The notes under the pieces are model-generated. The model had not been told where the DNA came from and ran no database searches. It saw only the letters and a list, made by a program, of their open reading frames with translations. Position numbers and translations under genes: made by a program. DNA of 60,159 bases, filler included, from Parachlamydiales bacterium (GTDB lineage: Bacteria; Chlamydiota; Chlamydiia; Chlamydiales; Parachlamydiaceae): the NCBI GenBank assembly GCA_020051075.1. It is 3 parts of 3 records of this genome, joined end to end, with 100 filler letters (N's around TTAATTAATTAA, not from the genome) between each part and the next. Parts side by side here need not be neighbours in the genome. Positions count along the whole stretch, not along the records: positions 42,705 to 60,159 come from JAGVJP010000098.1; 2 more parts are not named here. One strand, 5' to 3'. Shown in pieces: positions 45,015 to 50,176 of this stretch (positions are counted from its first letter, which is position 1; each line of letters opens with the position of its first letter).

Positions 45015-47501
45015 ATGATTACAGGGAGTTATTCTAGATATAGTTGTGCTTCATCCTCATCTTCACCATATGATCGTGGCTCATCTACGGTTGCTTCATC
45101 CTCATCTTCAATATATTTCACTCCTGCTTCAGGAGCAAAGAAAAACGATCGTCTGATCCGGAAGATTACCGAGGCTATAGGGCCAGATCCTTTATTTTCA
45201 AAGGCAGTGGAGACCGGTAGTATTGTTTTCAATCTGTTGCATTCGTTTTTTCAAAACAGAGGAAATCCCGCGACCCGGATCCCAGAACTCCAAGTAGGGA
45301 ATGAAATTGTTAGAAATATCAGTTGCTTAGAACTTGCTTACCGTATCAGTAAGAATGATTTTAAGGGGATGCTTGCCATTTGGGATAACGAGGGAACTAA
45401 AATCAATTCCTTATTTGAGGAGGTGATATGTCTTGGTTTTAAGCGAATTAGCAAAGTGATTAAAAAAAACATTAACACTGAAGAGTGGATTGATTTGATC
45501 CAATGTTTCTTTGCTGGTGACCCCTACCTTTCGCTTCGAGGGAAAACTGCAAATAGATTTCTCGATATTGTAAGCAAATTTCTGGATGCGGGTGGAAATC
45601 CGCTATTGTCAGTTGAAAATGTCAGATTTGGTCGCAAGGTTTTGAGTAAGCAGACAATTTTTGAGCTAGTTAGCCTTTTATGGAAGCTTCCTTACGGGTA
45701 TGGGTTAGACGTAGAAGAATGGAATCAAGAAGAAGATTCGGATGAAGAGGAAGAGTGGCAAGGGATAAACGATCGTTTTTTTTTAGTGGTTGATCGCTGC
45801 GAGAACATCATCAAAACGATGTTGGTAAAGAATCAATTGGCAGATGAAGATTTTCTGCCCTTGATTCGATGTGCTGTTAAAGATGATATTGAAGATCAAT
45901 ATAAGCGAAATCCCCCTAAACAACTCGGAGAGAGATTTTTTCAAATTATGATATATTTTGTTTACCGCCGGGTCAATCCAAACCTAGCTTTTTCCCTCTT
46001 TGAAATTGATGGAAGTACGTATGCAGACCTGGCTTGTTTTCAATTGGTCTATCTCATATTGAAGGATCCGAAGATAATGTGGGATAGGAAGCGGACGGGA
46101 AAACTTGATATTCTATTTAAAAGGTTGTTATCAGATCCTAGAATTGACTTAACATGGAGATTTTCTGAATACAGTCTAAATTCACATCATTTTGTCAACA
46201 CAGATAATATTACCTAGTACAGGCAAAAATATCCAGTAGGGACTCAAGACAATCCTGCCTATTATCATGGCAGCTACGAACCGAGTGAATCGTTTATCGA
46301 TGAAGTTGAAGGTTATAGTCTCGAAAGGATAACGATTGCTCACTATGCAGCATTTATTGGTGATTATATGCTGCTTACAGAATGTTTGGATCTAGAGCCT
46401 CGTTTAATGAAGATGCAGTGTTGTTTAACGAAGGGCAAAGCCTTATTACATAGAATACATAGAGAAGAGAGTTGGATACAGTCTACATCGGGATCATTAG
46501 AAACGGATTCACTTTTAGAAACTGATGATCGATTATCAGGCCCTTTAAGAATCCTTGAAAAAGATTACCTCGGAGAACAAGTCAGCTTAGAAAGTCGGAT
46601 TTATCGAATCACGAATGTGACACTACTTCACTTAGCTGCAAGAGGCGGTCATGAAGGGATTCTAGCTTGCTTGCAGAGCAAACATCCAAATCGAGCTGCT
46701 GAGGACTCTGACAATCGAATTCCCCAGCATTATCTACAACTTTCGATAGAAGAGGGGGTTCTTGAAAGAATTGACAGCTCTGAGAGAATGTTTGAGGCTC
46801 TCAAACCCGTCACTAAGTTGGTTCGAACGCTGCCTCAAGTCAATCTAATTATCCATCGTAAAGGATATGATCTTCACTATGACACAATTGGCAAAGTCGC
46901 TAAATTTGTGCGACAACGCTTAAGAAAAGAGTCCTTTGGCGCTGCAAAAAGGACCGGTCATAGGTGGATAGATAATCTGGATATTCCCGAACTCAATCGG
47001 GTTATCGATCGCGACTATGAAGGTTCAGGTTATGATAGAGGGCACCTAGTTCCAGCTGAAGATGCAACCCGTTCTGATCGCAGAATGGGAGATACATTTC
47101 ATCCAGAAAATGCTGTTCCACAAAATCCAAACTTAAATAGAGGGGTGTGGAGTCAATTAGAAAAACATGTGCATAAACTAGCTCTTAGTCATGATCTAGT
47201 AGAGGTTTTTACTGGTCCATTATTCGTACCGCGGCGTCGGCTTCGGGGCAGGGTGATAGCCTATCCACTCATGGGTCTTGGCGATGTGCATGTTCCGACA
47301 CACTTATTTAAAATCATTTTTGTTCATGACCGCACAACGAGTGCTGAGGTTTACATCGTCCCCAACGTAACGCAGCCTCCAGGGACAAAATTTTCTGCTT
47401 TCAAGTGTATAGATCCACGTGAGGGCATAGATTTTATTCAACGCTATAGTGGGATTCTATTTCGAGAATGGATGCAAAATCGCCCTCGAATTGGCTCTTG
47501 A
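45015..47501 (+). pseudogene. ankyrin-like plus DNA/RNA non-specific endonuclease, copy 1, split by one in-frame TAG at 46215-46217
   Basis: ORFs 44973..46217 and 46368..47501 share a frame with no other stop between them; collinear with copy 2; YDRGHL intact. Confidence 0.85.
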
Positions 47502-47620
47502 GTCCTTTTAATTTGTTTTGTTGTATAAATTTTTACGATTTTCATTTTCGATTGAAATGAAAGATTTTTTTATACTATATGTTTGTTGATCATTCTCAAT
47601 CTTTTGAAGGAGTTTTTAAT

Positions 47621-50176
47621 ATGATTACAGGGAGTTATTCTAGATATAGTGGTGCTTCATCCTCATCTTCACCGTATCATGGTGGCTTATCTACAGGTGC
47701 TTCATCCTCATCTTCAATATATTTCACTCCTACTTCAGTAGCAGAGAAAAACGATTGTCTGATCCACCAAGTTCTCGAGGCTATACGACGAGATCCATTA
47801 TTTTCAGATGCTTTTTCCACGGCTCGTCAATGCCTGAATGCGCTATGTGCGTTTTTTAAACAAGGAGGAAATCCTGCGACGCCTATCCCAGAAATGAGCA
47901 TAGGAAGAGAAATTGTTAAAAATATCAGTTGTTTGGAATTTGTTTATCGTCTTAGTAAAAGTGATTTTGAGGGATTGTTAGTTAATTGGGATAACAATCC
48001 GATCGGTTCTCTTTTTACAGAAGTGTTAGAGATCGGCCTAAGGGAAATCGATAGAAAAACTGAAACCCTCATTAGCATTGATCAGATCGTGGATTTGATT
48101 AGGTGTGTTTTTGCAACCGATTCTTATTTTTCGCCTGTAGGAGAAGATGGCAAAATTCTCAATCTAGTGAACAAATTTCTCGATTTAGGTGGGAATCCGA
48201 TGATGTCGGTTGAGGATCTTAAATTTGGTCGAAAAGTGCTGAGGAAATCGACGATTTTTGAACTACTTTATCTCCCTTACCATTGGGAAGAGAGTGTGGA
48301 TCCCTATTTATGGGATGATGAAGTATATGAATGGAATGGATTACCAGCGGTAAATGATCGTTTTTCTTCAGTGATTGATCGTTGTAAGAGGATCATCAAT
48401 GCGATGCTGGACAAGAATCGATTGGCAGATAGAGATTTTCTTCCTTTGATTCGTATCGCGATTGAATTTGATTTGGTAGTGCAACCTAAGAGTTGGTTAT
48501 TTCCAGAAACTAAGGGGGAGTTGGGTGATAGTGGGGAACAGTTTCTTCATATTGGGGAACAGTTTCTTGATATTATGGAGCATTTTATCGATTGCAAAGC
48601 TAATCCAAACATAGTTTTTCCTATCATTAAAATTAGTAAAAATAGTTATAAAGATCTGGCCTGCTTTCAAGCAGTCTACCTCATATTGAAAGATCGGGAG
48701 ATAACGTGGGATAGTCGGTGCAAGGAAAGACTTCAAGGTATATTTGAAGCCTTGTTATCAGACCCTAGAATTGACTTAACATGGAGATTTTCTGAATACA
48801 CTTTAGATTCATATCACTTTGTTAATAGACGCAATCCAACACACTACCGAGAGAAATATCCAGAGGGGACTTCTATCACTTTTTTCTACCCTGGTGGTAC
48901 TCATACAGAATCTTTTTACGCAGAACTTTGCGATGGGGCAGAAATTGATGCAACTGAGGGGCATTCTCTCGAAAGGATAACGATTGCTCACTATGCGGCG
49001 GTTATCTGTGATTATGTGATGCTTAGGGATTTTTTGGATCGAGAGCCTCGATTAATGACGATGACATGTTGTTTGACGAGAGGTAAAGGCTTGTTAATGA
49101 AATCTGGTGATTCAGTATCAGACAGATTAGAAGGATCAGACGGATATTGGATTTCGTCTCAACTACATTCAAGAGTACCAGACACACTTTTAGAAAGTGT
49201 CGATCATTCACCAGGTTTTATAAAAGTCTTTGTCGAAAGTTCTAGAGGTGAGCTCTGCGAGCTTAAAAGTCGAATTTATCGGATCACGAATGTGACGCTC
49301 CTTCATCTAGCCGCAAGGGCTGGCCACGAAGCGATTCTAGCTTGTTTAGGGAGTGAACATCCAAATCCAGCCGCTGTGGATTCTGACAATCGAATTCCCC
49401 AGCATTATCTACAATTTTCGATAGAAGAGGGGGGGCTTCAAAGAAGTGACAGCTCTGAGAGAATGCTTGGGGCTCTCAAACCCGTTACAAAGTTCGTTCC
49501 AGCGTTACCTCAAGTTAATCTAACCATACATCGCGAGGGATATGATCTTCACTATGACACGAGCGGGAAAGTGGCTAAATTTGTGCGTCAACGCTTAGGA
49601 AGAGATTCCTTTGGCGCTGCAAAAAGGACGAATCATAGGTGGATAGACAATCTTGATATTCCTGAACTGAATCGGGTCATCGATAATGACTATAAAGGTT
49701 CGGGTTATGATAGGGGGCACCTAGTTCCGGCTGAAGATGCGACTCTTTCTGATCGGACAATGGGAGATACATTTCATCCAGAAAACGCTGTTCCACAAAA
49801 TCCAAATCTAAATAGAGGAGTGTGGAGTCGATTAGAAGCTCATGTGCGTAGACTAGCTCTTAGTCATGATCTAGTAGAGGTTTTTACGGGTCCATTATTC
49901 GTACCAAAAGAGTACCTCGAGGGCAGGATGGTGGTATATCCAGTCATCGGTGGGGGTGATGTGCATGTCCCAACAGACTTATTTAAAATCATTCTTATTC
50001 ATGATCGCAGGACGACTGCTGAGGTTTACGTCATCCCTAACGTCACCCATCCCCCAAGGACGCCATTTTGGGATTTCAAGTGGGAAAATCCTCGTGAGGG
50101 CATAGATTTTATTCAACGATATAGTGGGATTCCATTTCGAGAATGGATGCAAAACCGCCCTCGAATTCACTCTTAG
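47621..50176 (+). CDS. ankyrin-like plus DNA/RNA non-specific (EndoG/NucA-type) endonuclease, copy 2
   Basis: AAGGAG RBS before ATG 47621; Ser-rich N-terminus; TLLHLAARAGHEAIL ankyrin motif; GYDRGHLVPA, NAVPQNPNLNRGVWSRLE, VPTDLFK. Confidence 0.9.
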   Translation: MITGSYSRYSGASSSSSPYHGGLSTGASSSSSIYFTPTSVAEKNDCLIHQVLEAIRRDPLFSDAFSTARQCLNALCAFFKQGGNPATPIPEMSIGREIVKNISCLEFVYRLSKSDFEGLLVNWDNNPIGSLFTEVLEIGLREIDRKTETLISIDQIVDLIRCVFATDSYFSPVGEDGKILNLVNKFLDLGGNPMMSVEDLKFGRKVLRKSTIFELLYLPYHWEESVDPYLWDDEVYEWNGLPAVNDRFSSVIDRCKRIINAMLDKNRLADRDFLPLIRIAIEFDLVVQPKSWLFPETKGELGDSGEQFLHIGEQFLDIMEHFIDCKANPNIVFPIIKISKNSYKDLACFQAVYLILKDREITWDSRCKERLQGIFEALLSDPRIDLTWRFSEYTLDSYHFVNRRNPTHYREKYPEGTSITFFYPGGTHTESFYAELCDGAEIDATEGHSLERITIAHYAAVICDYVMLRDFLDREPRLMTMTCCLTRGKGLLMKSGDSVSDRLEGSDGYWISSQLHSRVPDTLLESVDHSPGFIKVFVESSRGELCELKSRIYRITNVTLLHLAARAGHEAILACLGSEHPNPAAVDSDNRIPQHYLQFSIEEGGLQRSDSSERMLGALKPVTKFVPALPQVNLTIHREGYDLHYDTSGKVAKFVRQRLGRDSFGAAKRTNHRWIDNLDIPELNRVIDNDYKGSGYDRGHLVPAEDATLSDRTMGDTFHPENAVPQNPNLNRGVWSRLEAHVRRLALSHDLVEVFTGPLFVPKEYLEGRMVVYPVIGGGDVHVPTDLFKIILIHDRRTTAEVYVIPNVTHPPRTPFWDFKWENPREGIDFIQRYSGIPFREWMQNRPRIHS

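Follow-up and report, generated by a model that had tools for sequence, protein, structure and literature searches.

What use would an environmental chlamydia have for two adjacent genes in which ankyrin-like sequence is joined to a nuclease of the EndoG type? Such a pair lies in a window of 60,159 nucleotides (the whole stretch of DNA that we analysed) from a Parachlamydiales bacterium (GCA_020051075.1; 2.94-Mb assembly, 43% GC). The window consists of three contigs (C122, C123 and C125) joined by runs of N at 16942-17041 and 42605-42704. The pair sits on C125 (JAGVJP010000098.1; window 42705-60159), so genes left of 42705 are not its neighbours. An earlier note, made from the sequence alone, read the pair as host-targeted nuclease effectors of a diversifying family. 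We find a chlamydial family with a distinct architecture, conserved catalytic residues, a single chlamydial origin, an exchanged leader and mobile genes. From these we infer the secretion, target and purpose of the nuclease, and we lean modestly towards the view that the family comprises type III-delivered, host-directed nuclease effectors of environmental chlamydiae.

An EndoG-type nuclease with an intact catalytic site

The two genes are tandem paralogues, as previously proposed, with + strand starts at 45015 and 47621 that each follow a GAAGGAG ribosome-binding motif (45000..45006, 8 nt upstream of the start, for copy 1; 47606-47612 for copy 2). Copy 2 (47621..50176, + strand; P0002) is an intact gene of 851 amino acids (aa). 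Residue numbers follow P0001, which starts 14 codons upstream of the copy 2 start. Copy 2 encodes, in order and all on the + strand, a Ser/Thr/Pro-rich, non-hydrophobic leader that is predicted to be disordered and is a candidate type III signal (47621..47737); three homologous repeats delimited by hhalign and a structural model (47738..48823, made up of 47738-48067, 48068-48418 and 48419-48823); ankyrin-type helical units (TIAHYAA, TLLHLAAR) split by variable inserts and recognised from weak Pfam Ank and structural matches (48824..49483); and an EndoG-type nuclease (49484..50173) with DRGH at 49709-49720 (H714), N745, E753 and a beta-wing at 49895-49969. Copy 1 (45015..47501, + strand) has the same leader, three repeats, ankyrin-type stack and EndoG-type nuclease (46809..47498, + strand, DRGH at 47034-47045; Pfam PF01223, E 4.2e-40), with one in-frame stop.

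Both nuclease domains matched the HMMER profile Endonuclease_NS decisively (E 4e-40 and 1e-41; 138 and 143 bits against a cut-off of 23), and the DRGH and N...E motifs are intact, as the note had seen, with H714, N745 and E753 present. Among the 27 fused nuclease domains with enough coverage, a filter that dropped copies broken inside the nuclease, the His, Asn and Glu are invariant, and Arg or Lys precedes GH in 25. Structural comparison gave Z scores of 27.8 for EXOG and 27.6 for EndoG (root-mean-square deviation (rmsd) 2.5-2.6, 217 residues aligned), and 23.9 for NucA and 22.6 for Serratia nuclease; sequence comparison gave E 1e-27 for mouse EndoG versus 5e-13 for NucA. Both copies have a beta-wing of 24 residues between TGP and VPT, an element described in passages of PMC2790893 as the EndoG dimer interface and as absent from bacterial homologues. 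A wing of at least 22 residues occurs in 26/26 eukaryote-type rows (14 named so at source and 12 assigned by us), 43/45 chlamydial stand-alone nucleases, 19/27 fused proteins and 13/59 other bacterial rows. We conclude from these sequence comparisons that both copies are members of the sugar-non-specific nuclease family (PF01223), in its EndoG-like branch.

Origin from a chlamydial stand-alone nuclease

For an IQ-TREE phylogeny we picked 89 nuclease domains from 186, leaving out long branches and near-copies; the bootstrap had not fully settled. The 23 fused rows formed one branch (96/88), which lies inside the chlamydial stand-alone nucleases (99/96, or 100/98 together with one Waddlia-titled sequence), and the chlamydial and eukaryote-type EndoG/Nuc1 rows together split from 26 other bacterial rows (100/98). 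Keeping the eukaryotic rows together was not rejected (approximately unbiased test, p-AU 0.34), so that nested and sister placement, and any donor and direction of transfer between chlamydiae and eukaryotes, are all compatible with the tree. The phylogeny indicates a single fusion event, in which the nuclease came from a chlamydial stand-alone enzyme grouping with eukaryotic EndoG. The stand-alone proteins (270-330 aa) are thus the direct ancestors of the fused clade and differ from it in keeping a hydrophobic leader and the full wing.

Several further sequences fall in this part of the tree. The chlamydial stand-alone EndoG-type nucleases (L005-L013, L056-L101) are widespread, carry a hydrophobic leader and a eukaryote-type beta-wing, and branch with mitochondrial EndoG/Nuc1. 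Nitrospirota- and Planctomycetota-titled nucleases (L092, L100, L116) have wing-length segments and form the nearest branch to the chlamydia-plus-eukaryote group. One nuclease from a genome of the chlamydial order (L016:1486-2082) falls among eukaryote-type rows, by a second transfer or by contamination. Three viral-collection contigs (L143-L145) carry chlamydial-type stand-alone nucleases and are either chlamydial prophage or misfiled bacterial contigs.

The N-terminal module and its contact with the nuclease

An AlphaFold2 model from a 30-row alignment (predicted local distance difference test (pLDDT) 81, predicted TM-score (pTM) 0.82) left residues 1-50 disordered, with a leader pLDDT of ~30. 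Behind the leader are three homologous units of ~110-130 aa (hhalign probability 98-99% between units), each modelled as a helix pair ending in GxNP, then a beta-hairpin and further helices; single-sequence self-BLAST found no internal repeat and profile comparison did. All the motifs listed by the note (GGNP/xNPN, TIAHYAA, TLLHLAARxGH) are present. Profile comparison led us to reject GGNP/ANPN as 33-aa ankyrin units, since these motifs belong to the three ~110-aa repeats; the note had taken them for degenerate ankyrin units. The HMMER Ank matches were below cut-off (E 0.025; best for copy 2 15.4 bits versus 21.1), and a Pfam ankyrin repeat exceeded the cut-off in 1/27 relatives (P0020). Over residues 282-640 the model aligns with ankyrin proteins (Z 10-13, rmsd 2.4-4, ~150-190 aligned), with repeats 1-2 barely covered; nearly all non-nuclease structural matches are ankyrin proteins, and for repeat proteins Z <13 can reflect mere arrangement. 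Repeat 3 and the TIAHYAA and TLLHLAAR units are probably, by the model, an insert-laden ankyrin-type stack; by Pfam profiles the family is not one of canonical ankyrin proteins. P0001 matched no family in NCBIfam, and an Atlas search with the repeats returned unnamed clusters (0.92) and ankyrin clusters (<0.9), which are leads only.

The earlier note had suggested auto-inhibition by the ankyrin region. We folded residues 280-632 and 640-860 as separate chains and obtained a contact score of 0.62 versus 0.00 for the best control. The mark for this score, reached by 116/157 solved complexes and 2/215 mismatched pairs, is roughly valid here, with our own alignment, and parts of one protein tend to pass the test. 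At least 87% of contacts were common to runs, and partner pLDDT was at least 91. The predicted contacts join 339-344, 394-399 and 490-494 with 649-653, 764-767 and 806-812, at positions that are conserved (R397 in 23/26, E767 in 18/22), and leave out R712, H714, N745, E753 and the wing (773-797). The contact therefore reads, in the model, as a structural clamp and not an active-site plug. Because the predicted contacts bypass the active site, auto-inhibition gains no support from a prediction that covered the protein from residue 280 on, with repeats 1-2 outside it; acidic loops or repeats 1-2 might still inhibit the enzyme, and the N-terminal halves are net acidic in 15/16 members.

A polar leader in place of a hydrophobic one

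No signal peptide had been seen in the pair, and our hydropathy scan agrees (best 13-residue values 0.58 and 0.44). A hydrophobic leader is present in 28/37 stand-alone nucleases (six more without a usable leader were left out) versus 0/30 fused proteins; it occurs in 28% of the 1869 open reading frames (ORFs) of the genome. Comparison of these leaders indicates that a polar leader took the place of the hydrophobic export leader in the fused proteins. By a polarity score, which is our own heuristic on crude start calls and not a trained predictor, both copies lie at the 99th percentile of the 1869 ORFs, and the family median is 0.17 versus 0.03, a comparison in which kin are not independent. 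A Ser-rich leader is a feature of the pair (Ser 43-47%) and not of the family (0-17% in the other 28), contrary to what the note had implied.

The genome encodes a type III apparatus (SctV 888.8 bits versus a cut-off of 692, and YscJ_FliF matches), and FHIPEP was found in 5/5 other carriers tested. Contig C107 also has an FlhA match that exceeds the cut-off and, within ~5 kb, a 540-aa frame of the YscJ/FliF family (L179, L187); the two may belong to a flagellar cluster additional to the type III locus.

Uneven divergence of the two copies

The two genes had been described as encoding proteins of ~830-850 aa. This holds for copy 2 (851 aa); copy 1 is broken by an in-frame TAG (46215..46217, + strand; codon 401 of 828) that falls in the loop linking repeat 3 to the ankyrin-type stack and divides the gene into two ORFs, one of 400 codons and one of 427 at most. 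We found no strong restart site downstream of the TAG. The contigs of one DNA sequencing run (X1) do not reach the stop, which may be an assembly error, and copy 1 is a probable recent pseudogene, an inactivated duplicate. That the stop is recent follows from the purifying selection between the copies, computed with the stop codon left out.

The expected contrast between divergent N-terminal halves and close nucleases was seen for the repeats (52-54% identical) versus the nuclease (80%), but not for the first 39 residues, which are closest of all (85% aa, 93% nt). The two ASSSSS motifs reported for each protein are there, encoded by an 18-nt repeat that occurs twice per leader and four times in total. 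Synonymous divergence (dS) between copies is 0.06 in the 39-residue leader and 0.5-1.1 in the repeats (65-70% nt identical; ratio of non-synonymous to synonymous divergence (dN/dS) 0.35-0.62); one insert is near neutral (dN/dS 0.93), and the last ankyrin unit and the nuclease are 84-86% nt identical (dN/dS 0.22 and 0.29). This unevenness of dS along the sequences suggests gene conversion between the copies at both gene ends. We counted the near-identity of the disordered leaders amid divergent repeats, the invariant H, N and E and the nuclease dN/dS in favour of a host-directed nuclease.

A chlamydial family that duplicates, moves and decays

With the first 574 residues as query, we recovered 26 proteins among 1.84 billion representatives, two of them the window's own; the remaining 24 comprise 16 with this nuclease and eight pieces of 102-355 aa with no other domain. 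We know ~30 relatives in all, and every one with an assigned taxon belongs to the Chlamydiota. Three repeats are found in long forms (780-1040 aa), two in a single form of 666 aa, and one in short forms (516-574 aa). A profile of the non-nuclease core gave strong matches in 9/400 genomes of the order, from five families (47 further genomes gave weak generic ankyrin matches and one genome was unscored), and in 7/400 genomes of an overlapping phylum sample. The same profile matched 0/301 and 0/201 genomes in samples centred on Gammaproteobacteria-titled and Planctomycetota-titled records, so the architecture did not prove common in free-living bacteria among the genomes sampled. The diversifying family of the note is thus borne out as a chlamydia-restricted ankyrin-type/EndoG-type family. 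Among the best 80 of 120 loci in an all-species scan, seven carry the fusion, six under Parachlamydiales, Protochlamydia, Parachlamydiaceae or Chlamydiales titles and one as 'uncultured bacterium'. In metagenome and viral scans 1/85 loci was fused, and stand-alone nucleases dominated the rest.

Five of 14 genome-located copies, from 10 genomes, are interrupted and one runs off its contig; some breaks may be sequencing errors, the FHIPEP gene of one carrier being likewise fragmented. Insertion sites differ in every genome. We conclude that the family genes duplicate, move and decay. In one genome (G003) a segment is duplicated ~67 kb apart (L141:3276-9375, L142:2047-9682), with the nuclease gene, a PDC-S27-like ATPase and two toxin-antitoxin (TA)-like pairs, near transposase genes.

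Frequent loss and breakage would also fit a non-secreted housekeeping, or largely non-adaptive, cytoplasmic nuclease for RNA and DNA turnover, kept by drift after the fusion. The two PF01223 matches in this genome are the pair itself and a stand-alone copy is absent, so that the pair might replace the stand-alone enzyme. We nevertheless think this explanation quite unlikely: the stand-alone enzymes are exported, unlike the fused ones; the retention of clamp residues and of an invariant catalytic site across deep divergence implies long selection; and uncontrolled non-specific nucleases are toxic in the cytoplasm, which is established knowledge and is stated in part of PMC2790893.

Weighing a host-directed role

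In a single fusion, a chlamydial EndoG-type nuclease that was ancestrally exported via a hydrophobic leader joined an ankyrin-derived module whose leader is polar. If the fused proteins are host-directed effectors, as we favour, this leader would route them through the type III system into the eukaryotic host, which is probably an amoeba or another protist. Clamped rigidly to the rear of the nuclease, the ankyrin/repeat module would serve as an arm for targeting or scaffolding whose surfaces evolve fast, and the exposed Mg-dependent His-metal active site would cut host DNA and RNA without sequence specificity. Within the host the nuclease would be constitutively competent. Most likely it would serve to release nucleotides and, late in the cycle, to kill the host cell or take it apart, in mimicry of apoptotic EndoG.

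One 1039-aa member (L132) extends beyond the nuclease by 234 residues, which contain GDGxCxxHA and, at the C-terminus, an HY motif. An Atlas search placed this extension with OTU clusters (0.92, 182 shared features), and D, C and H are kept in seven chlamydial homologues, two of which are ankyrin fusions. The extension is probably, judging by these motifs, an OTU-like deubiquitinase domain, and we took it as support for a host-directed role because OTU activity is useful only in a eukaryote. A divergent OTU-like family (L132:7324-8025; L190-L199) occurs in 7/61 family genomes, C-terminal on ankyrin and other long proteins and mostly under Pfam detection. Among 51 chosen neighbours at 12 relative loci, counts for which there is no background rate, ubiquitin, RING, kinase, WD40 or LRR genes lie near 5/12 loci.

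Several observations weigh against host delivery. The OTU call is weak and concerns one member: the domain itself has no Pfam hit, two of nine homologues match Pfam OTU at E 0.018 and 0.097, and its PDB profile matches to A20 are sub-threshold (E 0.16-0.4). Several relatives score near the polarity median, and one lies at the 2nd percentile. Since the active site is unblocked in the model, this reading gives no account of how the bacterium would be spared by its own nuclease, and to release a non-specific nuclease in the host would seem a costly course for a symbiont. What the nuclease would cut (chromatin, RNA or foreign DNA) is a guess, and secretion, expression and activity are predictions from sequence. 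Finally, AbiE, Fic, YhcG, PDC-S27 or TA-like genes lie within 4 kb in 6/12 relative loci, and directly upstream in the duplicated G003 segment, with none at the window's locus.

These last neighbours raise the possibility of intracellular defence, in which the N-terminal module would sense a phage or plasmid product and unleash the nuclease in the bacterial cytoplasm (abortive infection). The lack of an export leader, the patchy, mobile and often broken copies, and the combination of an acidic N-terminal half with a neutral-to-basic nuclease in most long and short members all fit such a role. Yet PADLOC models matched 0/4 family proteins, the window's locus has core neighbours only, and accessory hot spots gather effectors and defence genes alike. 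The OTU-like extension and a predicted interface that bypasses the active site also speak against defence, as does the N-terminal module, which was not found on plasmids or in any of six viral loci. We regard defence as unlikely.

No adjacent immunity gene had been reported, and the gaps around the pair (176, 119 and 208 bp) leave no room for one. An inhibitor-like neighbour common to genomes was not found among the 12 relative loci and the window; a search of the genome for NuiA gave no match, the control likewise giving none. We counted the lack of a shared inhibitor-like neighbour in favour of a host-directed role. Family proteins have no Pfam domain for T2, T5, T6 or T7 trafficking. Proteins secreted into the host might be aimed at third parties there, namely giant-virus factories or co-infecting bacteria, in a protective symbiosis. 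According to parts of PMC9457554, Parachlamydia blocks maturation of giant-virus factories, presumably via effectors; such factories are exposed cytoplasmic DNA, and patchy distribution with variable repeat surfaces (dN/dS 0.35-0.93) would fit an arms race. There is no direct link, the family is rare, and it lacks the immunity gene and T5/T6/T7 trafficking domain of Tox-NucA polymorphic toxins; we hold third-party targets to be improbable. A fuller version, in which an EndoG-type nuclease common to chlamydiae and eukaryotes only was re-armed with a repeat module, injected into protists and aimed at giant-virus factories, is a long shot by our estimate.

Relation to known systems

Eukaryotic EndoG/Nuc1/CPS-6 and EXOG are the best sequence and fold matches (Z 27-31 versus 23-25 for NucA/Serratia), and share the DRGH-N-E site, the beta-wing and the placement in the tree. 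They differ in that the genes here are bacterial, with a 330-620-aa ankyrin-derived N-terminal module in place of a mitochondrial leader and a wing shortened in 8/27 fused members. Serratia nuclease, Anabaena NucA/NuiA and Tox-NucA belong to the same superfamily and share catalytic residues (GH, N, N, E; PMC3482391, in part); unlike them, the family here has no Sec signal and no adjacent inhibitor. The Tox-NucA table row of PMC3482391 names no chlamydiae, ankyrin repeats or type III export. On sequence features the family is not a Tox-NucA polymorphic toxin.

Passages of PMC3482391 also describe predicted host-directed endosymbiont nucleases that are ankyrin-linked and without immunity genes: Tox-REase-8 with ankyrin arrays (Wolbachia/Amoebophilus), a REase-9 effector of Parachlamydia and an SHH nuclease effector of Simkania. 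There, C-terminal OTU and ankyrin-plus-nuclease endosymbiont proteins without immunity genes are read as host-directed. These effectors have other nuclease folds (restriction, other HNH clades) and canonical ankyrins, whereas the proteins here have a novel ~110-aa repeat and insert-laden units. In its mode of action the family most likely resembles the ankyrin-REase-8 effectors predicted for Wolbachia and Amoebophilus. The NEX/PEX families of Parachlamydiaceae (F-box, BTB, LRR, TPR) resemble it in birth-and-death evolution, eukaryote-like repeats and type III signals, which were tested according to parts of PMC4209131; those families target ubiquitination and reach tens of copies, compared with 1-3 copies here. 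The word 'nuclease' does not occur in the main text of PMC9816063, and a type VI secretion system DNase acting on host nuclei is reported in a preprint (10.1101/2024.09.19.613802). Our literature searches, with supplements outside their scope, found no description of an ankyrin-EndoG fusion or of a chlamydial EndoG clade; Additional file 1 of PMC3482391 may list the architecture.

The insertion site and other features of the window

The pair is flanked by an SH3-domain gene (43576..44838, - strand), assigned by Pfam (SH3_3) and conserved gene order, and by a gene assigned likewise and found in 41/46 family genomes (50385..51134, - strand); we label these genes CT017-like and CT016-like, respectively. 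Pfam identified SH3_3, SWIM-like, PhoH and DUF455 in the flanks, and the core block runs PhoH / CT016-like / SH3 / DUF455. We fetched the CT016-like locus for 29 family-level relatives (29/40 with a match). In 25/29 the SH3 gene lies within 1.5 kb of the CT016-like gene, with a nuclease between them in 0/25; the remaining four have a short flank or a different neighbour. As 25/29 relatives have the empty block, the pair is an insertion in it, as the note had placed it. The genome has dozens of ankyrin matches (84). A promoter and terminator scan was at chance level (18 versus 14.5 +/- 4 expected).

At window 48883-49123 and 49669-49854, copy 2 is matched at 99-100% identity by two short contigs from run X1 (a drinking water metagenome by its label; depth ~2), a weak habitat hint from one study. 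Dispersed repeats of 100-350 bp lie at window 33285-33811, 5791-5925, 1-160, 28663-28847 and 42227-42604; they have dozens of copies genome-wide, many at contig ends and in both orientations, and resemble miniature inverted-repeat transposable elements (MITE) or repetitive extragenic palindromes (REP). At 39498-41315 the window encodes a class II (Asp/Asn-type) tRNA synthetase with a fused C-terminal tRNA_edit domain.

Implications

Nuclease effectors of protist endosymbionts have been predicted, and the literature that we consulted contains no test of one. Copy 2 provides a candidate in the form of one intact gene, whose product is foldable and allows a clean catalytic control. If the host-directed role that we favour is true, an intracellular bacterium has turned a nuclease related to that of eukaryotic cell death against its host or to the benefit of its host. 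A nuclease with a dimer wing regarded as eukaryote-only is widespread in chlamydiae, which bears on the source of mitochondrial EndoG. Should giant-virus factories be the target, the family would offer a concrete, testable explanation of how chlamydiae protect amoebae, and would point to an early exchange between mitochondrial EndoG and a chlamydial gene.

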